Positions 32,852-59,905 of a DNA stretch of 64,000 bases are shown piece by piece. How positions within the stretch are numbered: the first letter of the stretch is position 1; each line of letters starts with the position of its first letter. The position numbers and the translations under genes were made by a program. The DNA is from a virus: positions 1 to 64,000 of the IMG/VR virus record IMGVR_UViG_3300042507_006854. The stretch is one strand, 5' to 3'. The notes below the pieces were generated by a model that was given only the letters and a program-made list of their open reading frames with translations, did no database searches and was not told where the DNA came from.

Positions 32852-32876
32852 GTGTAATAATTATAAAGGAAAAAGG
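32852..32876 (+). promoter_or_regulatory. GTGTAA element plus AGGAAAAAGG leader
   Basis: Both recurrent motifs, upstream of the ATG at 32879. Confidence 0.6.
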
Positions 32877-32878
32877 AT

Positions 32879-34484: not shown

Positions 34485-36380
34485 ATGAATAAATTATCTT
34501 CAATTAAATATTTTATGAATTTATTACCAGGTAGGGCTAATTCTAGTCTTTTATCTTACATGTCTTTTGATTCTGGTAATAACCAGTTTATTAAAAATAC
34601 TTCTGGTAAAAAAGATTCAAATAATAATGATTTAATTACTGGCTTTATATTACCAAACGTGAATAATTTTTGGCAAGTTTCTGGAGCCGCATGTTTTGAA
34701 AATAATTATGTTAAAATAGTAAATAATAATAATTTATTTAATTTTTCTGATTTTACTTTCGTATCTATTATAGAAAATACGGGTTCTGTGAGTGGTGCAA
34801 CATTATTTTCAACTGTCCAAACTGGTTTAAAATTTAGTTATGACGATTTTGGGGTTGAATATGAAGAAATCTTTTTAAAAGGCTGGGAATTTGGTTTAAC
34901 TTCTAATAATAAATTATATTTTGAATATAAAGATAATAATGGTATTAAAAATATAGTTACAAAAGAAACTCTTCCAGATAAAGCCCCAATCTTTTTTCAA
35001 ATTGATTTTAAAAATTTGACTTTTGGCTATTACGATTATTTTTCAAATACTTTAAAAATTAATTATCATTTTATACAAGATGAATATATTTTTAACCCAA
35101 ATTCTTTATATATTGGTTTTAATCCAGAATCTTCCGGTTTGTATAATTTCAATAAACCATTTTATGGGAAAATGGAACAATTACTACTTTTTTCTCCATC
35201 TATTTACCAATATGAATTAGAAAATATTTTTAGTGGTTTTGTTTCTAGTTATAATTCAGGATCTTATTTTTTTAATGAATATGATGTTTCTGGAGTTACA
35301 GGTTTCGCAACTGGAGTAGATGGAGAAGAAATACCTCTTATTGGAAAAATCGTAGTGATTACTGGTTACGCTACTGGAATAATTGGAACTGTTACCGAGC
35401 TTACTGGAATAGAAACGGTATTTACTGGAATGTATGAAGATGATTTTGGTAATATAGTAGAGGGTTTTGAAGACGTATTTTTAAGTGGAACCTTCGAACA
35501 AACAGGTTTAATACCTCTTTCTGGATTTTTAACAAGGCGAGAAAGTGGTGTTATCCCTGAAAGTATTAATATTAATAATAATGAAATATACCAATATGGT
35601 AGAAATGCAATTAATCTTTTATCTAAAATAGATAATGATGATTTTATTGATATCGAAATGTTCACAGGTAATAAGTTTAATTCAAAATATAATAAAAATT
35701 TAAATGCTTATTTTGATCGTGTCAATGGTACTTTTATATTTGACAATGTAAGATTTGATGGTGAGAATAAAAATTATATAGTTTTTGCTAATGGCCAATT
35801 ATTAAATAGTGGAAGTGGGCAACGGGTTGGTTCAGTCTATCAACCTACTTCTTATATTATTAACGAGGACTACGCAGAATTGTCGCGTGGTGAAATATTA
35901 TGTCAAAATGATTTTAATATTTCAGATAATATTTTAGGAGATTTTATCTCTGGAGGTTTGATTGTTATAGATGAATTTATTCCTTTTCATCAAAATTTAG
36001 CTTCTGTTATTGGTCATCCAAATCTTCAATTTAATCAATACAATGTTTTTATTAATGGGCAAAAATTATGTTCCGGAGAGCATTATACAATTTCTAATAA
36101 TGTAGTTTATTTTAATATTAATAGCGCACTTTTTTCTGGTATTTCTGGCCGTTTAAGTTTAGTAAATTTAAACTATGATTTAAAAATAACGGGCTCTGAT
36201 AAAAATTTATTTTTACCTTCTCAAAAATATTTTGAGAATTATAGTCAAGTATATAAAAATGGTTTGCGTCAACAAAATATAGGAGATTATATTGAAATTT
36301 CGAAATTGAATATTTTAACTGGTAAAGCAATATTTGATACAAAATCTAATTTAATATATAATAATAATACTTTATTTTAA
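34485..36380 (+). CDS. Tail protein with N-terminal LamG/concanavalin-like domain
   Basis: 'DFTFVS...ATLFS...GWEFGLTSNNKLYF...LYIG...FYGKMEQLLLF' pattern; repeated VFxNGQ motifs; TG-rich central region. Confidence 0.55.
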   Translation: MNKLSSIKYFMNLLPGRANSSLLSYMSFDSGNNQFIKNTSGKKDSNNNDLITGFILPNVNNFWQVSGAACFENNYVKIVNNNNLFNFSDFTFVSIIENTGSVSGATLFSTVQTGLKFSYDDFGVEYEEIFLKGWEFGLTSNNKLYFEYKDNNGIKNIVTKETLPDKAPIFFQIDFKNLTFGYYDYFSNTLKINYHFIQDEYIFNPNSLYIGFNPESSGLYNFNKPFYGKMEQLLLFSPSIYQYELENIFSGFVSSYNSGSYFFNEYDVSGVTGFATGVDGEEIPLIGKIVVITGYATGIIGTVTELTGIETVFTGMYEDDFGNIVEGFEDVFLSGTFEQTGLIPLSGFLTRRESGVIPESININNNEIYQYGRNAINLLSKIDNDDFIDIEMFTGNKFNSKYNKNLNAYFDRVNGTFIFDNVRFDGENKNYIVFANGQLLNSGSGQRVGSVYQPTSYIINEDYAELSRGEILCQNDFNISDNILGDFISGGLIVIDEFIPFHQNLASVIGHPNLQFNQYNVFINGQKLCSGEHYTISNNVVYFNINSALFSGISGRLSLVNLNYDLKITGSDKNLFLPSQKYFENYSQVYKNGLRQQNIGDYIEISKLNILTGKAIFDTKSNLIYNNNTLF

Positions 36381-36383
36381 TAT

Positions 36384-39122: not shown

Positions 39123-39151
39123 TTTTAAATATTAATCTAATTTATAAATAA

Positions 39152-39162
39152 GTGTAATACAC
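39152..39162 (+). promoter_or_regulatory. GTGTAA element (palindromic GTGTAATACAC)
   Basis: 18 nt before the ATG at 39170. Confidence 0.6.
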
Positions 39163-39169
39163 TGTATTA

Positions 39170-42100
39170 ATGTTAATTTCAGGCACAAGGTTTCGGTCAA
39201 TATATCCTCAGTCTGTAGTAAATTGGAATTTTAATTTTCAACCTACTACTAGCACTGGCGTATTTGATTTTTCTTTTATTTCGAATAGTGGAGATGTTAA
39301 TATTTTTTCTATAAAAAATGGAAAAATTCTTACTACTGATGGTAAATTAGTTGGTGGTTATAGCCCTTATTCTGATATTAATTTATCGGGCAATGTTTCA
39401 AATGGTTTTATAGATCTATACGACACTAATGGGCCTTTATATCTAGGTTATAGAACAACTAATTATAATTATGTAACAGGTTTTAAATTAAATGCTTACG
39501 ATAATTTTATAGATTTTAAATCCTTAAATATTTTAGGAGATGTTCCTCAATATTTTTATGAGAATACTTTATCATACAAATCTGGAGATTTAATAAGAGT
39601 TAATATTTTTAATAGTGGCGAATTTGATTTTAAAATTTTTTCAGGTTCAATTAATACTAATGTTTTTTCACTAAGTGGCGCGAATAATTTAACGATACCT
39701 AAAAATAATAGTGGTAATTTTTATTTAGTCCATAATGGTGTTTTTATTGATTTTTTAAATACTAAAATAATTTTAGATACAGATTTTGGCACAAAAGAAC
39801 TGCCTCTTTTAATGTCTGGAATTAGAATTGAAGATCAATTATATTATATAACAATAGGCCCAGAAATTGTTGCTATTCAAAATGATTATTTTCAAGACTA
39901 TAATATAACTTTTAAAAATTCTTCTGGAGTTAAATTGTCTGTCGAATTAAAATATGTTAGTGGTATAACAGGAGATTATTATAAACCAGTTAGGCAAACC
40001 GGTTTGGCCTCTTTGACAAATGTCTCTGGTTTAATTTCTGGAAGTGGTTTTTTATATGGAAGATCTAGCGGTGTAATAACTAGATTTAATCCTTTGAGAG
40101 GGTTCAATGAATTTGGTACCGGATTTGGAGTGGCTAGAGATTTTAAAATAGCTGAAGATCAATATATTGAAAGATTTTTTATTATTTCTGGGTCAGGTAT
40201 TGGAGAGGTATATTTAAAAACAGGTATCCGTGTTACTGGTTATAGTACTGGTGTTGTCTATTCTGGTTATATAACTTATCTAGGTGGAAATTTAACTGGA
40301 TCTATTTCTAATGCGTTAGCGACTGGAGTAACCCCAGACAGTAGAAGAAATTGGACTGTAGTTAGTGGAGTTTTAGTTCCAACTACGTCAAATACAAATG
40401 TTGATAGTATCTGCCTTATTAGGCCCGAACTTTGTCCGACTTTATTCCCCCCAAACATTTTTGTCCAAACTATTACAGGTTTAGTTACTGGTAATTCAAC
40501 AGTATTTTATGATTATACTGGGCCTATTACGGGATATTATGAAGATAGAGATTTAAGAGTCGTCGATTTAGTAGCAAACAAAGTATATATAACTGGAGAT
40601 TTCGAAGATTATTATAACGTACTTGGTGTTGCATATGCTGTCGGCCCCAGAGTTTCTGGGAAATTTATTGGTGAATTGACTAATTTTGTCGAACCTGGTT
40701 TTTGGACAATATATAAAAGATGGTCTGGCGAATTAACAGGGGAAGGATTTGTAGAATGGACTGGCTCGGGTTTTGACCCTGTTAAAGTCGAAACAAGGCC
40801 TATTATTTTTACAGGTTATTGGTCAGGACAAATTGAGTCAGGATTTCTTGTAGACTTTTGTGATTTAATAGAAGAAAACCCTTTTCCGTGCGAATTTGTA
40901 GTAGAAGGAACTCCTGAATATGTTCAAACAATAGGAAATACTGGAATTTTTTATACCGAATTAAATGAAGTAAACGTGATTACTCAAAAAAATATTGGCT
41001 ATCAATATTTAGAATGGCCTAATGAAAATAGTGATTTTTTAATTAATTCTGGTAATATTAGTTTACATTTAGAACACCCGACAGGGGGGCGTACTAGAAT
41101 TTCTAGATTAGGGTCTACTCCATCTGGATCTGGAAAATTTGATAATCTTTTTCAATTTCCTTTCTATGAAGGAGTTAATACTCAGAAATTTGAGACGGGG
41201 GATGGGGGTGAATTATTATTAATTACAGGACAACCTGTTTTAAAATTCAATTTTAAGTTAGATTCGTCTGGAAATAAAATTCCAATTTATAGTGGTTATT
41301 TATGTGAATATGTAAGAACGGGAAATAATGAAATAGCAATTATTAATGGTTTTCCAGTTCCAATTCCTTTGTCATGCGAAACTAGTTCACAATGTATTGG
41401 TAACGGAGTTTGTTTTAGTGGTATCTGTTGGGAACATAAATTTGAGTTTGAAAGATATATATTTGATGTTTCTGGAAATCCCGTCCCAGACTTAAATAGA
41501 TACCAATGCAAACCCCAAACTGGTTCTACAGGCCAATTACTTTTAAATCCACTTTTAGATATTTCTGGCTCTATTTATGTAAAAGACGAAAAAGGTAAAT
41601 ATAATAAGGTTTATACTATTCCAGGATCAGAAAACAATATCGCTGTTCCTATGTATGAAATGATTCCTGATATGTTTGTAGCATCGAGTGGTTTTTTTGG
41701 ATGGAAAGAAAGTCTTCGAACTTTAACTGGTAGAATATATCCAGATGGTAGAGCTACATATATAACAGGTATTTCTGGCAAAGGTTTTATGGCCAATATT
41801 TGTGATAGTACTTATTTTCGTTTTAATATTACGGGCACCGGAAATGAAACAAATAGTATAGGAGCCTCTTTTTTTACTCCCGAAACTGGAAGATTATTAG
41901 TTTATAAATTATATAAGAGGGGTGACGGTAAACCAATTCAACAACAAAGTGGGGGTATGTATTTTTATACTGGTAAAAATTTGATTGTAAATTCTACTTT
42001 ACATACGGGAGATTATTATGGAACACTTGATTTCTTGCCAGTTCAATGTTTAAAAGAATATTCAAATTCATGTATTGGATTTAGTCATATAAGCTATACT

Positions 42101-43576
42101 GGTTGCGATAGTGATGGATTTATAGCTGGGACTATTTATAGAAATGGTTATGATGATTTTAGAATGAAATTAAGAGTAACAGCTTATTTTGTAGGCGACC
42201 AATTTCCATATATTTCACAAGAAGTTTTTGCTAGCGGTATCATGTGGGATATTATTTTAGGACCAAAACAAAATGAAGCGACTTTTAATTTTCCAATATA
42301 CAAAAATAATAAAATAGAAAATATTGTTTATGGAAAATTTCATTTAGGAATAGCAGAGATTGGTGAGTTTCCACCATGGTTAGTCGGCGTAAAACAAGAA
42401 GAGGTTGATTTTGTGTGGAGTGGTGGGCAAAATTGTCAATCAACAATTCAATCTAGAGGTGTAAACCCAGCAAATTCTGGTCTATATGCTCCATCATTAT
42501 CTTCACTTGGGCTAGACTTACAGGAAACACCATCTTCAAGACCTAATTTATCTAATTGGGGAAATACATGCCCCACTGGAGGTTGGGAGGAATGTTTTTG
42601 TGGGCTGAACACAACAATTTGTCCTGGTATCACATGCACTGGAAATTATATTCTGGACCCTATTTCTTGTAATTGTGTTCCTCCGATAGTTACTACTGGA
42701 TGTATAAGTATTACTGGGTGTACCGGAATTCCGCCAGTAGAAATTGAATGTTCTGGAGCGGCTTTAACAATTAGTGGTTACGTTTTTTATAGAGATAGAA
42801 TCACGACGCCATGTATTGTTCCAGGTCTTGGATCATTAACCCCTACATGTGCCGGTGGTCACTGGTGTAATAGAACTGATTTTATGCCAAGGTTAAGAAT
42901 TGGTAGTTCAACAATAATCAATGCGAATAAAGCCGTTACTCTTAATAATTTGAATGGTGGTGATAGAGACGATCAGTTTGAATTTTTTATACCTGATAGT
43001 ACAATTATTAGTGGTCAAAATGTCCGTTTTGAATTACAGTGTTTGGGAAATAATTGTCATAGAGGTGTTTCATATGTAGTTATGACTACAGCAATTTCTG
43101 GTAATGTTATAAAAATATTTGATAATTGTGTAGAGCCTGATCAAGTTGCCTCTTTACCATTTATATGTACATCTCCAGGGTGTGACGGGTTTAATGTGGA
43201 TACATTAAAAAATAATTTTAATAAGGTTTTACTAAATAGCATTGAGCCTTCTCCAGATACCCCGCCAGGCCCAGGGTTTACTAGACAACATGCTTGTATA
43301 CGTTGGTTATGCACATGTGTTTCTATAAATCAGAATGGACCCCCAACAATAATTTCTTCTAGGCAGTATGGTGGACCGACAACAAATAATTTAAATTTAT
43401 CTGGTATAATTTGGAATGTTGTTCCACCACCAACATCTGGCGGTTGTTACATATATGAATTTCATTTTTATGGTTGGCAAACCCGTTCTCCAAATTCTCA
43501 ATGGATATCTGATGATTCAAAATTTGATGTTTATGGTCTAATTGCTAGGGATAGACAAACTACAAGAATTAGATAA
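39170..43576 (+). CDS. Large [ST]G-rich, Cys-rich tail appendage protein
   Basis: 1468 aa, beta-rich, about 80 SG/TG dipeptides by manual count, Cys clusters and a GHWCNR domain in the C-terminal part. Confidence 0.55.
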   Translation: MLISGTRFRSIYPQSVVNWNFNFQPTTSTGVFDFSFISNSGDVNIFSIKNGKILTTDGKLVGGYSPYSDINLSGNVSNGFIDLYDTNGPLYLGYRTTNYNYVTGFKLNAYDNFIDFKSLNILGDVPQYFYENTLSYKSGDLIRVNIFNSGEFDFKIFSGSINTNVFSLSGANNLTIPKNNSGNFYLVHNGVFIDFLNTKIILDTDFGTKELPLLMSGIRIEDQLYYITIGPEIVAIQNDYFQDYNITFKNSSGVKLSVELKYVSGITGDYYKPVRQTGLASLTNVSGLISGSGFLYGRSSGVITRFNPLRGFNEFGTGFGVARDFKIAEDQYIERFFIISGSGIGEVYLKTGIRVTGYSTGVVYSGYITYLGGNLTGSISNALATGVTPDSRRNWTVVSGVLVPTTSNTNVDSICLIRPELCPTLFPPNIFVQTITGLVTGNSTVFYDYTGPITGYYEDRDLRVVDLVANKVYITGDFEDYYNVLGVAYAVGPRVSGKFIGELTNFVEPGFWTIYKRWSGELTGEGFVEWTGSGFDPVKVETRPIIFTGYWSGQIESGFLVDFCDLIEENPFPCEFVVEGTPEYVQTIGNTGIFYTELNEVNVITQKNIGYQYLEWPNENSDFLINSGNISLHLEHPTGGRTRISRLGSTPSGSGKFDNLFQFPFYEGVNTQKFETGDGGELLLITGQPVLKFNFKLDSSGNKIPIYSGYLCEYVRTGNNEIAIINGFPVPIPLSCETSSQCIGNGVCFSGICWEHKFEFERYIFDVSGNPVPDLNRYQCKPQTGSTGQLLLNPLLDISGSIYVKDEKGKYNKVYTIPGSENNIAVPMYEMIPDMFVASSGFFGWKESLRTLTGRIYPDGRATYITGISGKGFMANICDSTYFRFNITGTGNETNSIGASFFTPETGRLLVYKLYKRGDGKPIQQQSGGMYFYTGKNLIVNSTLHTGDYYGTLDFLPVQCLKEYSNSCIGFSHISYTGCDSDGFIAGTIYRNGYDDFRMKLRVTAYFVGDQFPYISQEVFASGIMWDIILGPKQNEATFNFPIYKNNKIENIVYGKFHLGIAEIGEFPPWLVGVKQEEVDFVWSGGQNCQSTIQSRGVNPANSGLYAPSLSSLGLDLQETPSSRPNLSNWGNTCPTGGWEECFCGLNTTICPGITCTGNYILDPISCNCVPPIVTTGCISITGCTGIPPVEIECSGAALTISGYVFYRDRITTPCIVPGLGSLTPTCAGGHWCNRTDFMPRLRIGSSTIINANKAVTLNNLNGGDRDDQFEFFIPDSTIISGQNVRFELQCLGNNCHRGVSYVVMTTAISGNVIKIFDNCVEPDQVASLPFICTSPGCDGFNVDTLKNNFNKVLLNSIEPSPDTPPGPGFTRQHACIRWLCTCVSINQNGPPTIISSRQYGGPTTNNLNLSGIIWNVVPPPTSGGCYIYEFHFYGWQTRSPNSQWISDDSKFDVYGLIARDRQTTRIR

Positions 43577-43602
43577 ATTTTTTATATAAAATATAATATA
43601 TT

Positions 43603-43887
43603 ATGGATTTAATATTATTCGTATTAGTGTCTTTAGGGGCTAGTTATGTTTGGTCTTATGGAGAAATATTTCTTCCTTTAAGAATTTTTATAGTCAAATA
43701 CTTGGGTAAATGGGGTAAGCCCTTTTTATGTGGCGAATGCTCTTCTTTCTGGGTCGGAGTTATCATATCAATATTTATAAACCCTTTATTCCAAATTACT
43801 TATTTAATTGTTTCCAATATTTTTTGTGGTTTAATTTCTTATTTATTATATAAATTTACGCATAAAATACTTTTTGAAAATGAATAA
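43603..43887 (+). CDS. Small multi-TM protein with CxxC (DUF1360-like)
   Basis: Three hydrophobic segments and the motif PLR...PFLCGECSSFWVG. Confidence 0.6.
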   Translation: MDLILFVLVSLGASYVWSYGEIFLPLRIFIVKYLGKWGKPFLCGECSSFWVGVIISIFINPLFQITYLIVSNIFCGLISYLLYKFTHKILFENE

Positions 43888-44404
43888 AGAACAGATATTA
43901 GCAAATTTAAATCAATACAAAAATCCACAATTTGGAAGTTATATCGTATTTATTTTTTTAAATTTATTAACAAATTTTAAAGATAAATTTTACACTGGTT
44001 CTGAAAATATTATTCCCGCGATTTATGTAGAAATGGTTACACTAAGTAATTCTCCAAATTGCTCGTGCCGTTCTAAAGTAATAAAATATATAAATAATAA
44101 TTTAGATCAAATTTTTGAATTTATGGTAAACTGGATTAATCGAACAGAAGAATCTATTTTAAGTGAATTTTTTGATTTCTTATTTAACGAAATAGATTCC
44201 CAAAATATAAAAGCCAGATATTTTCAACATTTGGATTTAAAAACAAAAAGAATGGCTGGTAATGTCCTTGTTATCGAAGACGATCCAGTAGAATATAGAA
44301 AAGTAATAGATTACTTGCAAAAAGAAAATTTTGAATATAAAGATTTTAATTTATTTAGTTTAACAGATGGTGATAAAAAATATTTAAAGTTTTATTTCTA
44401 TTAG
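43874..44404 (+). CDS. Hypothetical protein with PNCSCR motif
   Basis: Overlaps the CxxC membrane gene; carries a single CxC motif. Confidence 0.55.
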   Translation: MKMNKEQILANLNQYKNPQFGSYIVFIFLNLLTNFKDKFYTGSENIIPAIYVEMVTLSNSPNCSCRSKVIKYINNNLDQIFEFMVNWINRTEESILSEFFDFLFNEIDSQNIKARYFQHLDLKTKRMAGNVLVIEDDPVEYRKVIDYLQKENFEYKDFNLFSLTDGDKKYLKFYFY

Positions 44405-45192
44405 AATTTTCTTTGATTTATTAAAGCATTTTTACTTCTCATCGCGTGGACCAAAGTAGGTTTAATATTATATTTTTCACCCGTCATATAAGATTCGTAA
44501 CTCCATGTGGTATGTAATGGAATTATATTTTTAAAATTACCCGTCCAATCCGAAGCCCAATAATTAAAGTAATTTTCATGAAAATGAAAATTTACATTTT
44601 TACTCATATAATTTGTAATATAAGCCATCGGAATCTCTTCTGTAATTCGATAGTTATTTGACACAAAATAATTATAACAATTTATTCCTAGCTCACAAGC
44701 TTGTTTAATAAAACTTTTTTTACATATCCAATATCCAGCATTTACGTTTCTAATTTCTTTATTAAAAACACCAAGGTTTCTATACATTTGAGTTAAAGTT
44801 TGAACTGGAACTCCCCACCAATCTGGTCGTATAGTTTTTTCTGAATTAATTGGGCTTTCCAAAAAACAGTGCCAAGGATTACCTTCCCTCATTAAATCTA
44901 ATGGAGATATCTCAGGTTGTGCCACAAAATAACTATCGCTGTCTATAAAAACAAAATACTCGTAATCCATTTCTAATAATTTTATTAAATAAAAAAACTT
45001 AAACATATAATTTGCTAAACTGATTTCAATTTTTGAGTCTAGGGAACGGTTAATACAATTTTTTAAATCTTTATCTGAGAATACAATAAAATCATCTTGT
45101 ATTCCAACAGCTCTTGAAGAGTTTATCAAAGATTGAGCCATATATGCATAATCTCCCCAAGCAATTGTCCAATAACAAATTTTTTTATTCAT
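44401..45192 (-). CDS. Glycosyltransferase, GT-A fold
   Basis: N-terminal WTIAWGDY, KFFYL, DxD motif FVFIDSD, NAGYW, late His. Confidence 0.7.
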   Translation of the reverse strand: MNKKICYWTIAWGDYAYMAQSLINSSRAVGIQDDFIVFSDKDLKNCINRSLDSKIEISLANYMFKFFYLIKLLEMDYEYFVFIDSDSYFVAQPEISPLDLMREGNPWHCFLESPINSEKTIRPDWWGVPVQTLTQMYRNLGVFNKEIRNVNAGYWICKKSFIKQACELGINCYNYFVSNNYRITEEIPMAYITNYMSKNVNFHFHENYFNYWASDWTGNFKNIIPLHTTWSYESYMTGEKYNIKPTLVHAMRSKNALINQRKF

Positions 45193-46208
45193 ATACTTTT
45201 AAATATTTCTTCCCATAATTTAATATGTTCGTCTGAGTTACACCACAATTTGATTGATAAATTTCTTGCTTCTACTCCTATTTGTATACGATCCTTATAT
45301 GAAAGATCCATAAATTGGGCATATTCGCAAGCCTCTTCATATGTTTTCCAAATAAATCCAGTTTTATTATGATTTATTTGATTAACGAAATTAACTTTAT
45401 TAGGAGCGATAACTGGAAGTCCTGTCAACATTGCTTCAATTGTGGCTCGACATTGTGTCTCAGTAAATGTATAATGACTATTATAAACATAACAATCTAA
45501 AGATTTTAGAAAATCAATAACGTTTTCTTTTGTGGCGGGTAATAATGTCCATTTATCTTTATTAAAATTAAACCAAGAAAAATGTTCAACTATTTTTTTG
45601 TTTAAACCCATAACACGATACTTAGGATTTTTAATACCAAGACCTTCATAAAATAATGGAAAATTATCTGAAAATTTTAAAAAATCGGGCCGACTATGTT
45701 TACCAATTGTAAAAACATCTTTCTCCTCTCTTTGTATATAACGATAATTTTCCAAATGAAAATAATTAGGAATTATATATTCTTTCGATTTTTGTAATCT
45801 TATATCTTGATAGTGCTGATTACTAGTATAAATAGTCGCATCAATGAAATTATTATCAAAAGCCCATTTTTCTTCATTCGTTCTCCACATCATATCATTT
45901 GACCAAATAAATTTAAGACCCATTGATTTTATTTTTTTTATACGCCAATTTTCAGAAAATATTCTAAAATTACAAAATGAAATTCCAAAACCTTCTGTTT
46001 TTTCTGGAAGGTCTTCCCATCTTAAAATTTCTACATTATTTTTCTTTAAAAAAGAAATATTTTCAACTTCTTCTAATCTAAAATTGTCATTTGGAATACA
46101 AAATAATTTATATTTTTTATTCGTATTGAAACATTGTATTAATTCTTTTAATCTTGTATCTGCGCCCCCTAAATTAGATGGCCAAAGAAAAAAATACAAA
46201 TTTATCAT
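45189..46208 (-). CDS. Glycosyltransferase family 4 (GT-B)
   Basis: LGGADT N-terminal motif; ETQCRATIEAMLTGLPVIA (ExxxxxxxE signature); 'INHNKTGF'. Start placed at ATG 46208 with TATAAT just upstream. Confidence 0.85.
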   Translation of the reverse strand: MINLYFFLWPSNLGGADTRLKELIQCFNTNKKYKLFCIPNDNFRLEEVENISFLKKNNVEILRWEDLPEKTEGFGISFCNFRIFSENWRIKKIKSMGLKFIWSNDMMWRTNEEKWAFDNNFIDATIYTSNQHYQDIRLQKSKEYIIPNYFHLENYRYIQREEKDVFTIGKHSRPDFLKFSDNFPLFYEGLGIKNPKYRVMGLNKKIVEHFSWFNFNKDKWTLLPATKENVIDFLKSLDCYVYNSHYTFTETQCRATIEAMLTGLPVIAPNKVNFVNQINHNKTGFIWKTYEEACEYAQFMDLSYKDRIQIGVEARNLSIKLWCNSDEHIKLWEEIFKSI

Positions 46209-46251
46209 ATTTATATTATATTCTATAAATCTTGTTTTACATAATTTTTTA

Positions 46252-46257
46252 GTGTAA
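46252..46257 (+). promoter_or_regulatory. GTGTAA element restarting late transcription after GT island
   Basis: 18 nt before the ATG at 46270. Confidence 0.6.
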
Positions 46258-46269
46258 TTAGTTAAATAT

Positions 46270-46638
46270 ATGGCATGCGAACTTTCAGTTATTAGCAATC
46301 AAAATTTTTTATTTGGATCTACCAATTTAAATTGTCCAGATGTTCCTATTCCAATTTGCCCACCAGGAAACTATTCTATTGTCCCAGTTATTCAAAATGG
46401 TTGTATAATATCTTATAATTGTGTTTTAATTAGTAGCGCTATAGATAATTTTATCCCAGAATCTGTTGATGTTAGTGGTCGTGCCGGAACTTTATTTTTC
46501 CCAGACGCCGGATTAATAAACACTACTTGCCCAATAATATCTGAATTAAGCTCTTTTATACCAAATATATTAGAATCTAGTGGCCGAGCGGGAACCTTGT
46601 TTTTCCCAGACTTTGAAACTAAATTATGTGTAAATTAA
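46270..46638 (+). CDS. Small Cys-rich protein with duplicated SGRAGTLFFPD
   Basis: Sequence inspection. Confidence 0.55.
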   Translation: MACELSVISNQNFLFGSTNLNCPDVPIPICPPGNYSIVPVIQNGCIISYNCVLISSAIDNFIPESVDVSGRAGTLFFPDAGLINTTCPIISELSSFIPNILESSGRAGTLFFPDFETKLCVN

Positions 46639-46641
46639 GCT

Positions 46642-48555: not shown

Positions 48556-48559
48556 TACT

Positions 48560-49645: not shown

Positions 49646-49658
49646 TGTAACATATCAT

Positions 49659-50963
49659 ATGAGTTTTAAATTATATTATAAACCCTGGCCAAATGTAGTT
49701 CCTATTATTAATAATGTGGCTTACGATACAACAGAGCTTCGTTCTCCTGTAAAATTAGGAGAATTTAGTTCTGTCGATTCGGCAAAATATTGGGTAACTA
49801 GACATTTAAGATACGGAACTTTGGTTAAATCAACAGAATCTTTAGCTCAAGATACTTTTTTATCTGGTTGGGGTACAAATTCTGGGCCTCAACCTCAGCC
49901 TTTATTAAATTCAACACCTTTTATGTTGACAGGTATAAAAAATATTGCTCTTGGTTCTTTTCATGGTGTTGCTGTTTTATATTCAAACATCGTAACCGGT
50001 TGGGGATCAAATTCAAATGGTCAAATTAATCCTTCTATTTTTAGTGAACTTAAAGGAGAAAGAATAAAAAAAATAGAGGCTGGTGATTCTCACACTTTAT
50101 TTTTATCTATAGATGGAAAAATTACAGGTGTTGGGAGTAACAATGTAACCGCTGGGAATAATCTAACAAATGTTAAAGATATCTCAGTCGGTGCTTATCA
50201 TAGTTTGGCATTATTTGAAAATGGAAATATTACTGGTTGGGGTGGGCCCTCAGCTAGTGAAGCAAAAAATGTTCCCCAATTTTTACAAACAGGAGAGTTA
50301 GGAATATCAATTAGTGCTGGAACAACTCATAGTTTAGCTATTTTAAAAAATGAATTAGTTCCTTTTGAAGATTTTCCAGATTTGAAAGTTTCTACAACAA
50401 GATTAACTGGCTGGGGAGATTACCAAAATTTAAACAATTGGGCTGCAAATCTTTTAACCGGTGAATTTAAAATCGACACTTTTGATTGGGCTGGTTTAAG
50501 AAAAATTAGCGCTGGAACTTGGCATAGTATAGCAGTAATAGAAAAATGGGTTCAAAGAAGCCCTGGTTCAAATTTTTATGATAAAGTTTCTATGGTTACT
50601 GGCTGGGGTAGAAATGACCCCCCAACAAACGGAAACCAAGGTCCTGATGTCAATTTAGCAAATGGTGGGGATAATCTAATGTTTGTAGATAAGATTTTTG
50701 CCGGACCTTATCATAATATTGCTCAATTTTATAATGGGCAATTAACTGGATGGGGGCAAACAAGCGCGTTTAATAACATTAATATGAATGAATATAAAAC
50801 TTCTAATATTAAAGTTAATTATAACTTTAATCTAGTGATTAAAGAAAAAACAAGCACTTTATCTTGGGACAATTCAGAGATATTAAATAACTGGCCTTAT
50901 AATGATTTATATGTATATGAAACAGAACCTGGTGAAGGTGGCGTTGATGCGGTTCCTTGTTAA
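49659..50963 (+). CDS. RCC1-like repeat beta-propeller protein
   Basis: Six blades: IALGSFH, IEAGDSH, ISVGAYH, ISAGTTH, ISAGTWH, IFAGPYH, each followed by xTGxG. GTGTAA at 49645, 14 nt upstream. Confidence 0.85.
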   Translation: MSFKLYYKPWPNVVPIINNVAYDTTELRSPVKLGEFSSVDSAKYWVTRHLRYGTLVKSTESLAQDTFLSGWGTNSGPQPQPLLNSTPFMLTGIKNIALGSFHGVAVLYSNIVTGWGSNSNGQINPSIFSELKGERIKKIEAGDSHTLFLSIDGKITGVGSNNVTAGNNLTNVKDISVGAYHSLALFENGNITGWGGPSASEAKNVPQFLQTGELGISISAGTTHSLAILKNELVPFEDFPDLKVSTTRLTGWGDYQNLNNWAANLLTGEFKIDTFDWAGLRKISAGTWHSIAVIEKWVQRSPGSNFYDKVSMVTGWGRNDPPTNGNQGPDVNLANGGDNLMFVDKIFAGPYHNIAQFYNGQLTGWGQTSAFNNINMNEYKTSNIKVNYNFNLVIKEKTSTLSWDNSEILNNWPYNDLYVYETEPGEGGVDAVPC

Positions 50964-51748
50964 TATTTAATATTATTATTTTTTAATATATTTTCAATTA
51001 AATTTAGATTAACTTGTTTGTCTTTATTTGCCCAAAGATGGACAATACCATTCTTTATTAATTCTGAGGAAATGTCTTCATATTTTGGTGTTTTTATGAT
51101 TAAATTATCTTTATAATTTATTTTTAAATTATTAAAAATTAAGTTTGTAAATAAAATTTGTTCAAAAATTACTGGTAACATCCAACACTTATCTTTTTGA
51201 GGTAATTTTTCATTAATATCTTCTAATAATACTTTATTATTTAAGGCGTAATTTACCAATTCTATTGCTATTTGGTTAATTAATTCAAAATTATTTCCGC
51301 CCACAATCGCACAATTTAATGAAATGGGCTTTGCTATATATGTATTTAAATTTTTATATATATCTACTAAAATTTTAGTATTAAAAAGAAGCCATTCTTC
51401 TCCATGTAAACACAGAAATTCTTTTTTTATTAAATCATCTTTCAATTGTCGTAATAATAAAATATCAAAATCAATATGAATAAAAGGTTCTTTCATTTGG
51501 CTCATTGCTAATAATTTACCTAAACTCCATATTGATTTTGGTATATTTTCTGTAATTTGCTCTTCTAAACAAAAAATATTATTGTATTGAATATTTTCAA
51601 AATACAATCGAGATTTTTTGTCCACAAATAAAATTGTTTCATATCCATGTTTTTGAGCTAAAAAGTTTGAAACTGCTGCCATTTTTAAAATTTTTGAATG
51701 ATTTTTCTCTTTTAAGCTAAAATCAACATAACTAAAAATAACTTTCAT
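50960..51748 (-). CDS. Putative GT-A-like transferase (DUF6734-like)
   Basis: WSLGKL, EPFIHIDFDILL (DxD), LNCAIVGG, FEQ, HLW motifs. Confidence 0.6.
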   Translation of the reverse strand: MKVIFSYVDFSLKEKNHSKILKMAAVSNFLAQKHGYETILFVDKKSRLYFENIQYNNIFCLEEQITENIPKSIWSLGKLLAMSQMKEPFIHIDFDILLLRQLKDDLIKKEFLCLHGEEWLLFNTKILVDIYKNLNTYIAKPISLNCAIVGGNNFELINQIAIELVNYALNNKVLLEDINEKLPQKDKCWMLPVIFEQILFTNLIFNNLKINYKDNLIIKTPKYEDISSELIKNGIVHLWANKDKQVNLNLIENILKNNNIKY

Positions 51749-51804
51749 CTATTTTAATATATACAGATTTAAATGTTAATTCCAGTATATTTATTAATAA
51801 ATAA

Positions 51805-51831
51805 GTGTAAATATTTGATACAGGTAAAAGG
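51805..51831 (+). promoter_or_regulatory. GTGTAA element plus AGGTAAAAGG leader
   Basis: Both recurrent motifs, upstream of the ATG at 51838. Confidence 0.6.
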
Positions 51832-51837
51832 CTTGCA

Positions 51838-55452: not shown

Positions 55453-55471
55453 TAATTTTAGGTACAAGGAT

Positions 55472-58400
55472 ATGTCTAACTGTTCTAATTCTTATTCAGT
55501 AAAATTTGAATCCTTTAATGGTTTTAATAGGGCAGTTATATTAAAAGGTACTGGCTTATCAATCAATTATGATTTGGGTTGCGAATGTTTAACGCAAGAT
55601 AAAAATTGCAATATTTTAAATAATCTACCAAATAATATTGAAAAAATATTAGACACTAATTGCGTCAATACTTCTTTTACTGGTAATTTTAGATTTGATC
55701 AAAATGATCTTTATAAATATTTAGTAATTCCAGATTGTAATAACTCTAACCCTAATACTACATGGGATTTTTCGGTTTCTCCAATTTGTTGCAATAATCA
55801 ATATTCAGTTAATTTTTGGTCCTATACCGCGCCAAGTCGATTAGTGATATTAGCAGGTAGCGGACTATTAGTTAATTCAGGATTATTTTGTGATTGTATT
55901 AATAGTGATAAAAATTGTTCAATATTAAATTCTTTACCTTCTGATATTTATAAAGTTTTAGATACAAATTGTATTTTAACAAATCAAACAAATTTCACTC
56001 AAACGATTGATTTACCTTCAAATCTTCCAAATTTTGTTTTAGTTATTCCTGATTGTTTAAATCAAAATGCCAACGCAACTTGGAATTTAAATATAACTCC
56101 ATATTGCGCTCAAGGTGCTGTATGCGCTCCTTGTGAAGTTGCTTCTGGTATTTCCTGCTCTTTTGATTATACTTTTAGTATTTCTCCGCGTAACTCAAAT
56201 ATTGTTTTTGATACTTTTGAAAAAGTAACTTCTTATAAAGACGATCAATTAAATAAAGTAATTGTTGAAACTACAAATGGGTTTAGAGGTTATGAACGAG
56301 ATCTTGGATTCATTGCTGAGCAAGTTGATATTAATCCGTTCTTACCAAGTGGCGTTAAAGGCGTAACATATCCTAATGTCGGTGGAATAAATTTTGAATA
56401 CCCAAGTGATACATTCATAAGGGTAGAAGAAAAAAATCTTCGTCTTAAAGAACATGAATCATGGACAGAAGACTTTTCTTTATTTAATAAATATAGCTAC
56501 AATAATTTATCTCAAGAAGAAGCGGGGGCAGTAATTCCAACTAATGACAATATATCATTGTCTAAAGGTCCTTCAATTTATAATATTGAATATAAAGGTT
56601 ACAAATTTAATTCAAATACAAATGCAAAGTATAAACAAAAATTTGTTATCAAACAATTTCCTGAAAATAATATCGGTGTACCGATAGATTATTCTTTTAA
56701 CTCTGGATGGGCAAGTTATGATGTTACTTCGGGAATGAATTTTAAAAATGCCTTTTCGTATGGTGTTCAAGTCGTAGACAAGTTAACATTTACGGAAGGT
56801 TTTATTATTGAAGGTGAAACTAGAATTACTGGTCGTCAAGATATTATCAATTGGATACGAAGTGGCCTAAATCCAGTATTAAGAACTGGCATAATGAGCG
56901 CTTTTAGTTTCTTGTCTGCTTATTGTTTGGAAGGCCCAGACTGTCCAGAGCCTCCAGAGCAATGTCAAAAAGCTGGAGACGGAGGTGGTTTTGGCGGCGG
57001 ACCAATTTGTCCGATAGAATGTTGGACAGGTTCTAATATTACTGGAGCCGAATATTATAATTGGCTGACTGGCACTTTAAATAAATACCAAGACCAAAAA
57101 GCTTTTTTAAATAGTAATAATGTTTATGGAAAAATTATTACAGGTTCAATTAATGCACCATTTACCTCATTAACAGGGTCTCTTAGATATAATTCTTGGA
57201 TTTCTGGAGATAAATTTAGATTCACTATGTATCCATTTGATTATACTGGACTATATAGAGCTCTGCATCTTGGAAATGATCCTATTTATCCACCATACAA
57301 TGTAGAATTAGTCTACCCAAGAGATTGGACAAATATGTATAATTTTGTAGACAAATTAAACGAAAAATTAAGAGATGTTTCTGCGCCTATTTGGTACCCT
57401 TACCTGTGTTTATCAGGCACGCCTAGTGGTCATTACGTATCCGGTTCTTTGATGGAATTTATGATAAATACTGGTTCCTGTTGTCTACCAACTGGCGATC
57501 TCGATATTATGGATTTTCAAAATTTAATTGACTTTCGTTCTTTAAGAAGTTTACCAGGTTTACCACGAACAGGTCAAGCGATGAAAGATGAAGATTTATG
57601 TTTATCTGAAATAAAATCTGATGGATCTGGTCGTGCCCCATGGTATTTTAATTTAAAATTAGATTTATCTCCTAATGAAAGAAGGCCGTATAACATTTAT
57701 AGTGGCTATAGTTACTTAATTCCTACCTGTATTGAATTTCAAAGATGGGAAAATAATTCTTGGAAAACTGTAGATAAACATTGTAATTTATATAAAGATA
57801 TCACTGGACTAGATCGGACCTGTATTATTAAAGAAGTACCTGATTTAATCGAATCCAATGATGGTTATCTTAATCAGAATTACGCAAGCTCAATTACGGG
57901 CACGAAAACAGAGGAAGAATTACTTTTAGAAATTGAAGGTCAACCTTTCAGTGGTGTTTATAAAACACTTTTGAATTTCAAACAAAAAATCACAGTAAAT
58001 AGCAGGGGTAAATGTCAAGGTTGGGTTGATATTAAAGATATTGATTTTATATGGCCAGATAATTTTCCGACAGGCATTCTAACTAAAAATGGTCAATTAA
58101 GCGGTGTTGATAATAGATACTGGTGTAATCCAGAACAACAAGAAGAAAAAGGACCCCCCTGTGAATGTGAACCGTTGGGTCCCGAGCCGGATTGTGCTTT
58201 ACAAGGGTTTGACTGCATTGCGAAACAAGATAAAGACGAAGAATGCGGATGTCCATATTGGTATTGTGAATGCCCAACAGAAGAGGTTCCGCCTGTCGAA
58301 ATTTGTCAAATAAGAACTGGCTGGAATTTAACAGGTAGCTTTGGTTTAGAAGCAAAGAGTGCCAATTTTGATAAATATAGACTTGTATTTAGTAATTTTA

Positions 58401-59905
58401 GCGGTCAAAATATTGAGCATTATAAACCATTAAATGAATTTTATATTGGAAATATAAATTTATTTAGTATCACCGGAGGGATACCGTTACCACCTTTAAC
58501 AGGAACCGAAAAATGTCCTATTGGAGCTGATTATGTAATTGACGTTTTTGGTAATGTGCCTCTTAGAATTACTGGTGTGCACAATTATTCTATTAATGAG
58601 GGTATGAGCGGTGAATATACTAATTATTTTGAAGTAGTAAGACCAATTCTGCCCGAAGAAAGAAATGTTAAATTTAACAAGGTTAGTGGTATTATTACAA
58701 GTTTCTTCGCAACTGGTTTCTGGAGTAAAACGCTTAGACCTTCAGGCTGGGCTTGTAGAACATTTGATGATTATTTCTTTTATGACCCGAATTCAAAAGA
58801 AATTACTTTTGAGAAGACTTTATGCGCTTACGCATCTGGATTTACAGGGTTGAGTGGTAGTTTTATTGCTCTAAAACAATCTGTTGTTAATAGAGAACTA
58901 TTAGTTGGTGGTAGATTTAATACCCCTATTGCTTTTGTAACCTATACTGGAATAGGTACTTATACTGGATTTATTGATAATGTTACTTATAAAGAATATG
59001 ATGTAGTTGGTTATTATCCAATTACTGGACGCATAACAGGATTTACTAGAAGTGGATTTTTAGATGTTAGTAACACGGTAATAAGCCAGGCACCTGTTAG
59101 CGGTGATACTTATCCTTATTACCCAATTCCTACTGGTTTTATAAATGCTAGTGGTTATATAGAAGTTGATTTTTCTCAGATTAGGAATTTTGATTATTTT
59201 ACTATATATGGAAATAATTTTGTTTATCATTCTAATTCTTCTGAATATCCTTTCCCAAGCTACTTTAATAATATAGATACTTTATATCAAATTGTTAGTG
59301 GTATTGGGTCAGATCTTGGTATAGAGTCTTCGTTAGATGGAAATAAAATATTTATTAAAAGTTTAAGAACGGGAACCTTAGGTAATACTTCAATAACAAC
59401 AACTAATACAGGAGCTTTTAATATATTTGGTATGTCTGGTGGCCAAGACATCTTTCCAAGAATTTATAACTATTATTATGTAATTAATGACGGTTTTATA
59501 TCTGGCATTGAAATAACTCCAATGGTAACTGGAAATATTAATAGATTTATTTTAGCCACTGGATTTTACTATAGTAATTCTGGAACAGGTACTGTTACGG
59601 GTAACATAAGCACATTTACAGGCGTAAGATATTTTACTGGAGTATGGGATATTGCAACTGGAAATATATTTACGCCATTTAGAAGCTTTTTAAGCAATGG
59701 GTGGGTTTCCGGAGATAGTTTTATTAGAGAGAATACTTATAGTCCGAATTATTTACATTATATAAAATTGAGAGCCTTTTATTTAAATCAATTGTCCACA
59801 TTCTTATTCGAGGAATCTGATATTGCTGATTTAATTATTAAAGATGCTAACAATCCAGATATTTCCGGATCTGGGATTATTTTTAGATTAAGTGGAATTA
59901 AATAA
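55472..59905 (+). CDS. Large Cys-rich, [ST]G-rich tail appendage protein
   Basis: Two ~105-aa Cys-containing N-terminal repeats, Cys clusters, TG-rich C-terminal part. AGGTACAAGG leader at 55460. Confidence 0.55.
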   Translation: MSNCSNSYSVKFESFNGFNRAVILKGTGLSINYDLGCECLTQDKNCNILNNLPNNIEKILDTNCVNTSFTGNFRFDQNDLYKYLVIPDCNNSNPNTTWDFSVSPICCNNQYSVNFWSYTAPSRLVILAGSGLLVNSGLFCDCINSDKNCSILNSLPSDIYKVLDTNCILTNQTNFTQTIDLPSNLPNFVLVIPDCLNQNANATWNLNITPYCAQGAVCAPCEVASGISCSFDYTFSISPRNSNIVFDTFEKVTSYKDDQLNKVIVETTNGFRGYERDLGFIAEQVDINPFLPSGVKGVTYPNVGGINFEYPSDTFIRVEEKNLRLKEHESWTEDFSLFNKYSYNNLSQEEAGAVIPTNDNISLSKGPSIYNIEYKGYKFNSNTNAKYKQKFVIKQFPENNIGVPIDYSFNSGWASYDVTSGMNFKNAFSYGVQVVDKLTFTEGFIIEGETRITGRQDIINWIRSGLNPVLRTGIMSAFSFLSAYCLEGPDCPEPPEQCQKAGDGGGFGGGPICPIECWTGSNITGAEYYNWLTGTLNKYQDQKAFLNSNNVYGKIITGSINAPFTSLTGSLRYNSWISGDKFRFTMYPFDYTGLYRALHLGNDPIYPPYNVELVYPRDWTNMYNFVDKLNEKLRDVSAPIWYPYLCLSGTPSGHYVSGSLMEFMINTGSCCLPTGDLDIMDFQNLIDFRSLRSLPGLPRTGQAMKDEDLCLSEIKSDGSGRAPWYFNLKLDLSPNERRPYNIYSGYSYLIPTCIEFQRWENNSWKTVDKHCNLYKDITGLDRTCIIKEVPDLIESNDGYLNQNYASSITGTKTEEELLLEIEGQPFSGVYKTLLNFKQKITVNSRGKCQGWVDIKDIDFIWPDNFPTGILTKNGQLSGVDNRYWCNPEQQEEKGPPCECEPLGPEPDCALQGFDCIAKQDKDEECGCPYWYCECPTEEVPPVEICQIRTGWNLTGSFGLEAKSANFDKYRLVFSNFSGQNIEHYKPLNEFYIGNINLFSITGGIPLPPLTGTEKCPIGADYVIDVFGNVPLRITGVHNYSINEGMSGEYTNYFEVVRPILPEERNVKFNKVSGIITSFFATGFWSKTLRPSGWACRTFDDYFFYDPNSKEITFEKTLCAYASGFTGLSGSFIALKQSVVNRELLVGGRFNTPIAFVTYTGIGTYTGFIDNVTYKEYDVVGYYPITGRITGFTRSGFLDVSNTVISQAPVSGDTYPYYPIPTGFINASGYIEVDFSQIRNFDYFTIYGNNFVYHSNSSEYPFPSYFNNIDTLYQIVSGIGSDLGIESSLDGNKIFIKSLRTGTLGNTSITTTNTGAFNIFGMSGGQDIFPRIYNYYYVINDGFISGIEITPMVTGNINRFILATGFYYSNSGTGTVTGNISTFTGVRYFTGVWDIATGNIFTPFRSFLSNGWVSGDSFIRENTYSPNYLHYIKLRAFYLNQLSTFLFEESDIADLIIKDANNPDISGSGIIFRLSGIK

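Follow-up and report, generated by a model that had tools for sequence, protein, structure and literature searches.

Excess of Ser/Thr-Gly dipeptides in the outer virion proteins of an uncultured lake phage: possible O-glycosylation sites beside a conserved glycosyltransferase cassette

The tail and appendage proteins of an uncultured lake phage abound in Ser-Gly and Thr-Gly dipeptides ([ST]G), and glycosyltransferase (GT) genes lie among and beside the genes encoding them. We analysed this combination in a window of 64,000 nucleotides, which is the first 64 kb of the 146,949-base IMG/VR record IMGVR_UViG_3300042507_006854, estimated to be 78% complete. The window has a GC content of about 33%, contains no tRNA that we could find, and reads as a phage structural region; Pfam and PHROG scans gave almost no match among its structural proteins. 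The structural genes and gene blocks are listed below, and open reading frames (ORFs) are named in the text by their first coordinate.

164-2068: terminase (PHROG 2)
2111-4018: portal (weak match)
4020-8839: appendage gene block between the portal and the head genes
4020..4994, plus strand: appendage protein of 324 amino acids (aa), directly 3′ of the portal gene, with a BppL_N-like N-terminal motif (E = 5.6e-5, below the Pfam cut-off)
4998..6899, plus strand: 633-aa appendage protein
7209..8201, plus strand: 330-aa appendage protein with a weak BppL_N-like match
13327..14451, plus strand: major capsid protein
21158-31261, plus strand: tape-measure-like ORF of 3367 aa
31263-61654: distal tail gene block, with antisense insertions at 44401-46298 and 50960-51748
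31263..34483, plus strand: two tail-tip (hub-type) proteins of 524 and 534 aa, directly 3′ of the tape measure gene, their role assigned from position alone
34485..36380, plus strand: 631-aa tail protein, the third ORF past the tape measure gene, with an N-terminal jelly roll followed by a poorly modelled TG-rich stretch
36384-39122: 912-aa ORF inside the appendage block
39170..43576, plus strand: 1468-aa distal tail protein, with no Pfam or PHROG family
46642..48555, plus strand: 637-aa appendage protein
49659..50963, plus strand: 434-aa RCC1-repeat beta-propeller protein (Pfam RCC1_2, E = 1.9e-25)
55472..59905, plus strand: 1477-aa distal tail/fibre protein
61870 onward, minus strand: cassette that includes GT genes

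The proteins richest in [ST]G had no significant Pfam match, showing BppL_N resemblance below threshold at most, and those encoded at 34485 and 39170 had no PHROG match either. An original prediction, made from the letters of the window, had noted the dense pairs and proposed that a phage-encoded O-glycosylation (or similar) system coats the tail appendages at these sites. To correct for amino-acid composition we calculated the ratio of observed to expected [ST]G pairs (O/E) and obtained z from 500 shuffles per protein, with the following results.

39170-43576: 82 observed vs 25.8 expected, O/E 3.18, z = 12.5
55472-59905: 69 vs 19.4, O/E 3.55, z = 12.4
34485-36380: 30 vs 7.5, O/E 4.0, z = 8.8
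7209-8201: 19 vs 6.0, O/E 3.2, z = 6.4
4020-4994: 14 vs 6.6, O/E 2.1, z = 3.6
46642-48555, weak: 21 vs 13.9, O/E 1.5, z = 2.2
4998-6899, weak: 20 vs 13.2, O/E 1.5, z = 2.1
36384-39122, 31263-32837 and 32879-34483, not enriched: O/E 0.71, 0.50 and 0.78, respectively
21158-31261 (tape measure), not enriched: O/E 1.09
13327-14451 (major capsid protein), not enriched: 2 observed vs 3.7 expected

The excess is real and is confined to the outer virion proteins. It survived the correction for composition that had been suggested as a check, and the manual counts given earlier, about 80 pairs in the 1468-aa protein and about 2 in the capsid protein, were accurate (82 and exactly 2). A similar density had been claimed for 34485, 46642, 55472 and 4020-8839; this was borne out for 34485, 55472, 7209 and 4020 and overstated for 46642 and 4998. 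Pooling the proteins by class gave O/E values of 2.92 in the rich set and 1.52 in the remaining appendage proteins, compared to 0.97 in the core virion proteins and 1.11 in everything else. Across the whole 147-kb record nine proteins were clearly enriched, eight of which passed a record-wide cut-off of at least 8 sites and an O/E of at least 2, while the ninth, 97583, had an O/E of 1.70. The four enriched proteins that lie beyond the window (93210, 97583, 102336 and 110235) are paralogues of each other. Within the 39170 protein the sites are densest at residues ~250-560 (31 sites in ~306 aa) and sparse in the Cys-rich C-terminal third, and in the 55472 protein enrichment is strong from about residue 400 on, the N-terminal 300 aa being Cys-rich and site-poor.

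These Cys-rich, [ST]G-poor domains, encoded at 42470-43576 and 55472-56370, contain up to 10 Cys per 100 aa. Such a density is unusual for phage proteins assembled in the cytoplasm and suggests metal sites or disulfides.

We also considered the excess as a generic property of phage fibres, and rejected this explanation on the basis of two control phages, in which O/E was mostly near 1 (0.57-1.66 for the baseplate, whisker and fibre proteins of T4 and 0.7-1.5 for lambda J and stf). Full-text literature searches turned up no published description of such a Ser/Thr-Gly bias for the tail proteins of phages.

In the five rich proteins of the window, Ser or Thr precedes 214 of ~414 glycines. SG is over-represented 3.25-fold and TG 3.34-fold, all other XG pairs range from 0.0 to 0.7 of expectation, and both the reversed pair G[ST] (1.0) and [ND]G (0.86) lack an excess. 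About 30 codon pairs encode [ST]G, roughly in proportion to codon usage, and therefore the selection is on the protein and not on the DNA. The description of the sites as hydrophobic-[ST]-G in the original prediction was apt. Before the pair, Ile (2.0x) and Val (1.8x) are favoured and charged residues are depleted (Asp 0.3x and Glu 0.4x, with Lys, Asp and Glu ranging over 0.2-0.4), and after it Ile, Val, Phe and Trp are enriched and Pro is nearly excluded (0.1x). The extended motif h[ST]Gh, where h is a hydrophobic residue, is enriched 5.4-fold in the rich proteins, compared to 2.9 in the moderately enriched ones, 1.0 in the core virion proteins and 1.6 (1.56) in the non-structural proteins. 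The core virion proteins favour h[ND]Gh instead (1.8x).

The shuffles, the codon-pair usage, the spacing of the sites and self-BLAST refute an artefact, whether it be one of amino-acid composition, of codon bias or of one internal repeat, and we regard such an artefact as extremely improbable. The rich proteins are indeed rich in Gly, Ser and Thr, but O/E and the shuffles already correct for this, with z reaching 12.5, and the same genome encodes Gly/Ser/Thr-rich proteins without the excess. Codon bias is at odds with the variety and proportions of the codon pairs in use, and a repeat with the flat gap histograms and empty self-BLAST of the rich proteins, in which neither periodicity nor internal repeats were detected. 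Avoidance of deamidation, by which Ser/Thr would take the place of Asn/Asp before Gly, can be a minor contributor at most, since all XG pairs other than those with Ser/Thr are lowered about equally and since the share of glycines concerned, ~50%, far exceeds normal Asx-Gly usage.

To follow the sites in homologues we aligned the 34485 family (18 sequences, comprising the query and 17 homologues, at 26-96% identity) and residues 230-720 of the 39170 family (20 sequences). Every member of the 34485 family has an O/E of 3.2-4.3, and the 39170 homologues retain values of 2.0-3.6. Thirteen of the 30 sites of the 34485 query are present in at least 16 of the 18 sequences, often with Ser and Thr alternating. 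In distant homologues the Ser/Thr before Gly is conserved at 0.69 (34485) and 0.70 (39170), vs 0.41 and 0.31 for other Ser/Thr, while the Gly after Ser/Thr differs little or not at all from other Gly (0.75 vs 0.65 and 0.77 vs 0.75, respectively). In [ST]G columns in which the Gly is kept, Ser and Thr make up 89% of the cells and Asn and Asp 3%; in other columns with a Ser/Thr majority, Ser and Thr make up 68%. Both Ser and Thr are found in 23 of 37 strongly conserved columns. The conservation of Ser/Thr before Gly, their exchange for one another and the rarity of Asn/Asp indicate that the selected feature is a hydroxyl residue directly before Gly. The homologues of 55472 and 7209 in relatives are mosaic, and the capsid-flank homologues of 7209 were too mosaic to align.

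That the bias crosses unrelated folds, as originally stated, was confirmed by sequence and profile comparisons. BLAST found no similarity among the rich proteins of the window, and hhalign of the 34485 family against 39170, 55472 and 7209 reported just a 37-residue patch resembling ITGYATGII, at 16% probability; a hidden common ancestry of the rich proteins is supported by neither method. AlphaFold2 modelling on the 34485 alignment was usable for residues 1-270 alone (predicted local distance difference test score, pLDDT, ~80). These residues form a ConA/LamG-like jelly roll, with a Foldseek probability of 1.00 against many ConA-like/LamG phage proteins in BFVD and further matches to lectin-like jelly-roll domains in the PDB. 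In the model, the eleven sites of the jelly roll lie mostly in loops or tight turns at or beside strand ends; several directly precede a strand and one closes a helix. For residues 230-720 of 39170, its densest region, the 20-row alignment yielded a mean pLDDT of 40 and no usable fold. In the RCC1 propeller encoded at 49659-50963, each of the seven blades has [ST]G immediately ahead of the canonical WG, which is VG in one of them. The solved relative UVR8 has CS, QS, FA or YG at the aligned positions, and therefore the RCC1 fold does not require Ser/Thr-Gly there.

Relatives of the capsid protein are encoded by 95 viral contigs, of which we kept 79 distinct loci. No related capsid was found in any cultured phage, and the capsid protein had no PHROG match. 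It defines a large super-clade of uncultured phages, inside which all bias-positive genomes fall. We assembled six further whole records of this group from contiguous slices (G009, G005, G022, G024, G019 and G020) and called their ORFs mechanically. All six encode strongly enriched large proteins, G020 more weakly. The enriched proteins of G009 and G005 alternate with others past the tape measure, at the positions that they have in the window. G022 and G024 encode them in the head-proximal appendage block, and the proteins encoded past the tape measure are not enriched; one 2058-aa ORF of this group has 162 sites, with Ser or Thr before 70% of its Gly. G019 encodes a 1394-aa protein at O/E 2.5. 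The weakest signal is that of G020, which reaches a maximum of 2.3 and whose two largest fibre-sized proteins (1306 and 2117 aa) are at 0.9. The trait follows outer appendages rather than gene position.

Two proteins represent the opposite extreme. The ORFs at 87873-88631 (minus strand) of the full record and at 408-1691 (minus strand) of G022 are rich in Gly and Ser/Thr, yet have no [ST]G pair at all vs 7.4 and 7.6 expected, which could reflect the register of a repeat or avoidance of the pair.

Other observations concern the particle and the surrounding genes. The length of the tape-measure-like ORF (21158-31261, 3367 aa) implies a very long tail; the tape measures of the relatives have 1720-2996 aa and correspond to it over just ~30-40% of its length. 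Small proteins with 3-5 transmembrane-like segments are encoded within the structural region at 9143-10265 and 43603-43887; they were assigned to no family and are candidate holins or membrane proteins.

The GT genes, their neighbours and the nucleotide-sugar genes of the phage, referred to below as its glycan toolkit, are the following.

44401..45192, minus strand: 263-aa protein paired with the next gene, with no Pfam, PHROG or NCBIfam match
45189..46298, minus strand: 369-aa GT1/GT4-type glycosyltransferase in an antisense island of the fibre block (Pfam Glycos_transf_1, E = 1.7e-10; PHROG 2170)
50960..51748, minus strand: 262-aa DUF6734 protein (Pfam DUF6734, E = 1e-16), the second antisense insertion of the fibre block
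61870..62622, minus strand: 250-aa conserved protein between the fibre block and the GT9-like gene
62659..63837, minus strand: 392-aa GT9-like protein (Pfam Glyco_transf_9, E = 3.9e-14)
63839-65758 of the full record, minus strand: 639-aa glycosyltransferase (PHROG 2170, E = 1.8e-16) that straddles the window end (63839..64000 inside)
67672-68763, just beyond the window: 363-aa weaker GT4-like protein
71683-72759, beyond the window: GDP-mannose 4,6-dehydratase (Gmd; E = 9e-118)
77607-78602, beyond the window: NAD-dependent epimerase/reductase

At least four GT-like genes had been predicted within or next to the appendage genes. This holds for two genes in the window (45189-46298 and 62659-63837) and for 63839-65758, which straddles its end; 67672-68763 is a weaker case outside it, and the ORFs at 50960-51748 (DUF6734), 44401 and 61870 gave no demonstrable GT signature in Pfam, PHROG and NCBIfam scans. 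The 250-aa protein encoded at 61870 belongs to no family of these three databases and falls into viral hypothetical clusters only in the Atlas. In the GT9-like protein the donor-binding lobe alone is recognisable (residues ~30-183; the Pfam match joins protein residues 30-155 to profile positions 105-238 of 247), followed by ~210 aa without a recognised domain. A PDB sequence search with this protein retrieved 1psw and 3tov, matched over the C-lobe alone, and not TibC, the E. coli GT9 enzyme discussed below. Its NCBIfam matches were the lipopolysaccharide (LPS) heptosyltransferase I/II/III, RfaQ and RfaF models, all far below cut-off. The 639-aa GT has weak Glycos_transf_1 and DUF4214 matches, and its stop lies 1 nt before the start codon of the GT9-like gene. 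Its tail resembles a GT9 N-terminus by eye; Pfam and a PDB phmmer search found no match to a GT9 N-lobe there.

The three genes at the window end form a conserved cassette. All 10 large relatives have the GT9-like gene, with 40-54% identity; it diverges fast and belongs to a family found in 151 viral contigs; the 639-aa GT (70-79% identity) and the 250-aa protein (66-93%) are likewise present in 10 of 10. Around 80 viral GT9-like loci the 250-aa protein was found in all 80 and the 639-aa GT in 77, the latter being absent from G020 and L174 only and interrupted by the contig end in L141. Soluble GTs, including a GT9-like one, and GDP-mannose dehydratase are encoded in seven of seven whole genomes (the phage and its six relatives). 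The genes of the fibre block are more variable: the GT1/GT4-type pair and DUF6734 lie elsewhere in G009, where the 44401 homologue again adjoins a GT partner, and are missing from G005 and others (for the GT1/GT4-type gene G005, G022, G024 and G020). All toolkit proteins are predicted to be soluble, with no transmembrane segment. Scans of the phage genes found no flippase, ligase or polymerase family, and the small and mid-sized membrane proteins that we tested matched no GtrA, Wzy or ligase family. Gmd and the epimerase/reductase, as the GDP-6-deoxyhexose pathway conserved in the lineage, would make an activated deoxy-sugar.

A sigma-70-like factor (region 2, E = 3.2e-5) is encoded at 66758-67357 (plus strand) of the full record, between the GT cassette and the next GT-like gene, and middle or late transcription is probably under the control of the phage itself. 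A GT9-like match was also found in the 25-kb contig CBFHLR010000041.1 (L207), assigned to a metagenome-assembled genome of Coraliomargarita sp. (Verrucomicrobiota) and syntenic with the GT cassette and sigma-factor region of the phage. As this contig has 32% GC and is phage-like, it is probably a mis-binned phage and at best a weak hint at the host.

To get clues on how enzymes and motif are linked, we examined the neighbourhoods of the GT9-like genes. Full-length genes for the putative GT9-like enzyme converge on a large [ST]G-rich ORF in 40 of 50 loci. Loci that match GT9-like residues 1-282/292 only have no rich ORF within 10 kb, except L176; in G022 and G024 rich proteins are encoded elsewhere in the genome. 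The divergence of the GT9-like protein is discordant with that of the phage backbone, with 40-42% identity between phages whose capsids are 93-97% identical and 47-54% where capsid identity is 73-87%, while the flanking 250-aa gene tracks the backbone and the 639-aa GT is flat. This pattern indicates a gene-sized replacement of the GT9-like gene alone across G001-G013. G020, the sole whole genome examined without the 639-aa GT, also has the weakest bias (n = 1; the record is estimated to be 79% complete). The sub-lineage L148-L161 had seemed to be a counter-example, carrying the cassette without enriched neighbours, and was dropped as such because its whole record, G019, has rich proteins further away.

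Several known systems bear on a possible modification of these sites. TibC, a soluble cytoplasmic GT9 enzyme of E. coli with a GT-B fold, heptosylates Ser, and not Thr, in the sequence ...QNSGGAV... of TibA (PMC4358343). In the bacterial autotransporter heptosyltransferase (BAHT) systems TibC/TibA and Aah/AIDA-I, the target is a large surface adhesin, which is hyperglycosylated on many Ser in the tight turns that join its short beta-strands (PMC4358343). The phage resembles these systems in that its GT9-like gene adjoins genes for large, beta-rich, adhesin-like proteins full of [ST]G at strand-turn junctions. It differs from them in several respects. The phage protein matches the donor lobe of GT9 alone, LPS heptosyltransferases are its best matches, and no BAHT model in NCBIfam matches it. 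TibC has an iron finger of four conserved cysteines (Cys-339/342/358/370) and a beta-hairpin thumb (PMC4358343), whereas three GT9-like phage proteins at 41-46% identity have no four-Cys finger and share a single invariant Cys, C243. Thr is as frequent as Ser at the phage sites, and the phage has a GDP-sugar pathway (Gmd); no ADP-heptose pathway turned up in it, none having been specifically searched for.

The chlorovirus-type precedent is PBCV-1, which encodes GMD, GMER and its own GTs without an endoplasmic reticulum signal peptide and whose capsid is glycosylated at a non-canonical site (PMC7019647). The phage likewise encodes Gmd, an epimerase/reductase and several GTs; in PBCV-1 the products fucose and rhamnose reach virion proteins (PMC7019647). 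In that eukaryotic virus it is Asn residues of the major capsid protein that bear the N-linked glycans, while in the phage the candidate sites are Ser/Thr on appendages and the capsid protein is not enriched. Papers that cite Freeman et al. (2023, Cell Host Microbe) report extensive glycosylation of the virions of mycobacteriophages (PMC12582341, PMC11256854). Like our phage, mycobacteriophages are tailed, and phage-encoded GTs aid the glycosylation of their virion proteins; their hosts and enzymes are unrelated to those of our phage. The mycobacteriophage glycans reportedly sit on C-terminal extensions of capsid and tail-tube subunits and not on a dispersed fibre dipeptide. The combination of virus-encoded GTs with nucleotide-sugar enzymes, as expected of a virion glycosylation system of the PBCV-1 or mycobacteriophage type, is found in this phage as well, as judged from its genes. 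Pelagimyophages are also uncultured aquatic phages with GT and deoxy-sugar genes interleaved with tail-fibre genes (PMC7029224). They are T4-like myoviruses for which a dipeptide bias was not reported (PMC7029224), whereas the phage analysed here has a long tail of the tape-measure type and an unrelated capsid.

Two further comparisons gave little. The membrane-embedded GtrA/GtrB/Gtr(type) or Wzy/WaaL-like components of Gtr-type O-antigen modification were found neither in the toolkit nor among the membrane proteins tested. Proteoglycan xylosyltransferases act on Ser only, in an acidic context. The analogy with proteoglycans that had been drawn earlier is therefore nominal: Ser followed by Gly is a glycan attachment point there and a candidate one here, but in the phage Thr is as frequent as Ser, and the sites have hydrophobic flanks with a depletion of acidic residues at the position just before them (Asp 0.3x, Glu 0.4x). 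No GT14-like xylosyltransferase was seen among the genes scanned, in which no search was aimed at that family.

The reading that we favour, with a probability of roughly 0.42, is that the (hydrophobic)-Ser/Thr-Gly-(hydrophobic) motif is a selected surface mark on outward-facing virion proteins, most likely acceptor sites for O-glycosylation by soluble enzymes that the phage itself encodes. The conserved cassette (639-aa GT, GT9-like protein and 250-aa protein) would transfer sugars to Ser/Thr hydroxyls in the host cytoplasm. The acceptor hydroxyls would lie exposed on tight turns of fibre proteins that are folding or already folded, where the neighbouring glycine may open the backbone to the enzyme, as in the heptosylation of autotransporter beta-helices by TibC/Aah, and the resulting glycan coat would alter the stability, stickiness or recognition of the tail appendages. 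What makes a modification plausible is the combination of hydroxyl specificity, with Asn/Asp not substituting, restriction to outer proteins of unrelated folds, absence of the bias from T4 and lambda, a soluble toolkit and the precedents above. A hydroxyl-specific, conserved excess together with a conserved toolkit thus makes glycosylation plausible but unproven. The fuller scenario is doubtful: that long-tailed phages of an abundant, uncultured aquatic clade have their tail, neck and fibre proteins hyperglycosylated in the host cytoplasm at dozens of Ser/Thr each, at an h-[ST]-G-h turn motif, through the conserved cassette (the GT9-like enzyme possibly being two-chain) and a GDP-deoxyhexose made by the phage, as a phage counterpart of autotransporter heptosylation with a defined sequon.

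Several findings weigh against glycosylation by the toolkit. The bias and the core toolkit occur together in seven of seven whole genomes, all from one capsid super-clade; as every examined relative has both, their co-occurrence is inseparable from common descent. The association is perfect but phylogenetically non-independent, amounting as far as we can see to one evolutionary event, and is not evidence of function. The complete relative G005 is without the GT1 pair and DUF6734 gene of the fibre block, and its O/E is still ~3, and therefore the genes at 44401-46298 and 50960-51748 are not required for the bias. The co-occurrence of bias and GTs that the original prediction had proposed to check thus failed for the fibre-block GTs and was seen throughout for the core toolkit, with shared ancestry as a confounder. 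A co-variation of GT9-like type with the fibre genes was rejected, as fibres 34485 and 55472 do not follow it. Non-structural cytoplasmic proteins show no avoidance of the pair ([ST]G 1.11, h[ST]Gh 1.56), and it is therefore unlikely that a promiscuous enzyme of the cytoplasm simply reads a sequon of two residues; recognition would need context beyond [ST]G. Hydrophobic flanks and positions at strand-turn junctions also fit a structural turn or bulge, and the densest region (39170, residues 230-720) did not fold in AlphaFold2. In addition, the GT9-like protein has no hallmarks of the protein-acting BAHT enzymes, and pelagimyophage GTs beside fibre genes have been published as modifying the host O-chain (PMC7029224). 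The proposal of virion O-glycosylation therefore retains a specific, conserved excess in outer proteins beside a soluble toolkit, and has lost the support of the fibre-block GTs, which are dispensable, and of any GT that would track the fibres.

While glycosylation at [ST]G by the phage toolkit is plausible, a structural explanation is almost as likely. The pairs may be an idiom of short beta-strands joined by tight turns or bulges, in which Gly adopts an unusual conformation and the Ser/Thr hydroxyl caps the turn or bonds across the chains of a trimer; the idiom would have spread by mosaic exchange, with the GTs acting elsewhere, for example on the host envelope. The strand-turn junctions in the confident part of the AlphaFold2 model, the beta-branched and hydrophobic flanks, the near exclusion of Pro after the pair and the depletion of charges before it are all as expected of such an idiom, and so is the fixed position of many sites across 26-96% identity. 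The ITGYATGII-like patch common to two rich proteins hints at a shared building block, the dense region remained unfolded as a monomer like many obligate oligomeric fibres, and the fibre genes are demonstrably mosaic. It further accords with this explanation that no GT tracks the bias independently of phylogeny and that cytoplasmic proteins do not avoid the pair. Harder to reconcile with it is that the turn-formers Asn and Asp do not replace Ser/Thr (3% of cells, with [ND]G not enriched) and that core virion proteins of the same phage have h[ND]Gh and not h[ST]Gh. Folds as unrelated as a jelly roll and an RCC1 propeller carry the sites, cellular relatives of the propeller having other residues at these positions, and the profile comparison shows no homology among the rich proteins; the fibres of T4 and lambda are beta-rich trimers too, and are without the bias.

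Compatible with a structural idiom is a separate explanation of the enzymes alone, by which the toolkit remodels the host envelope (LPS O-chain or capsule) against superinfection or re-adsorption and is unconnected with the virion. We consider this a realistic possibility, somewhat below even odds. It is the published view of GT and deoxy-sugar genes among the fibre genes of pelagimyophages (PMC7029224), GT9 is the family of LPS heptosyltransferases, with enzymes of the RfaF/WaaC type scoring best in NCBIfam and the PDB, and GT9-like types are swapped independently of the backbone, as a function specific to the host surface predicts. Yet no flippase, ligase, polymerase or membrane-anchored GT of the phage was found and the toolkit is predicted to be soluble, the cassette is strictly conserved over a super-clade with highly diverse receptor-binding proteins, and the [ST]G bias is left unexplained. 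It is improbable, finally, that the pairs serve something other than the phage GTs, be it an enzyme of the host, an O-linked modification that is not a sugar, or an assembly chaperone common to these proteins. The specificity for hydroxyls and for a set of proteins would serve such a reader equally well, and the phage GTs fail to track the bias; but the neighbouring genes yielded no candidate for a kinase, an acyltransferase or a fibre chaperone, the sole cellular match is the probably mis-binned Coraliomargarita contig, and an unseen factor would be needed despite an obvious toolkit.

If the sites are glycosylated, they would give phage tail glycosylation its first defined acceptor motif, and would be a case of virus-encoded virion glycosylation with a definable motif. 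Candidate glycoproteins would then be predictable from sequence, and a small enzyme-substrate pair could be expressed in E. coli. If instead the pairs are structural, they would represent an undescribed, hydroxyl-specific turn idiom that separates outer from inner virion proteins in this lineage and that could be used to annotate appendage proteins missed by profile databases. Should O-glycosylation prove true, widespread environmental phages would sugar-coat their host-recognition apparatus, with consequences for host range, virion stability, particle adsorption and the design of engineered fibres.

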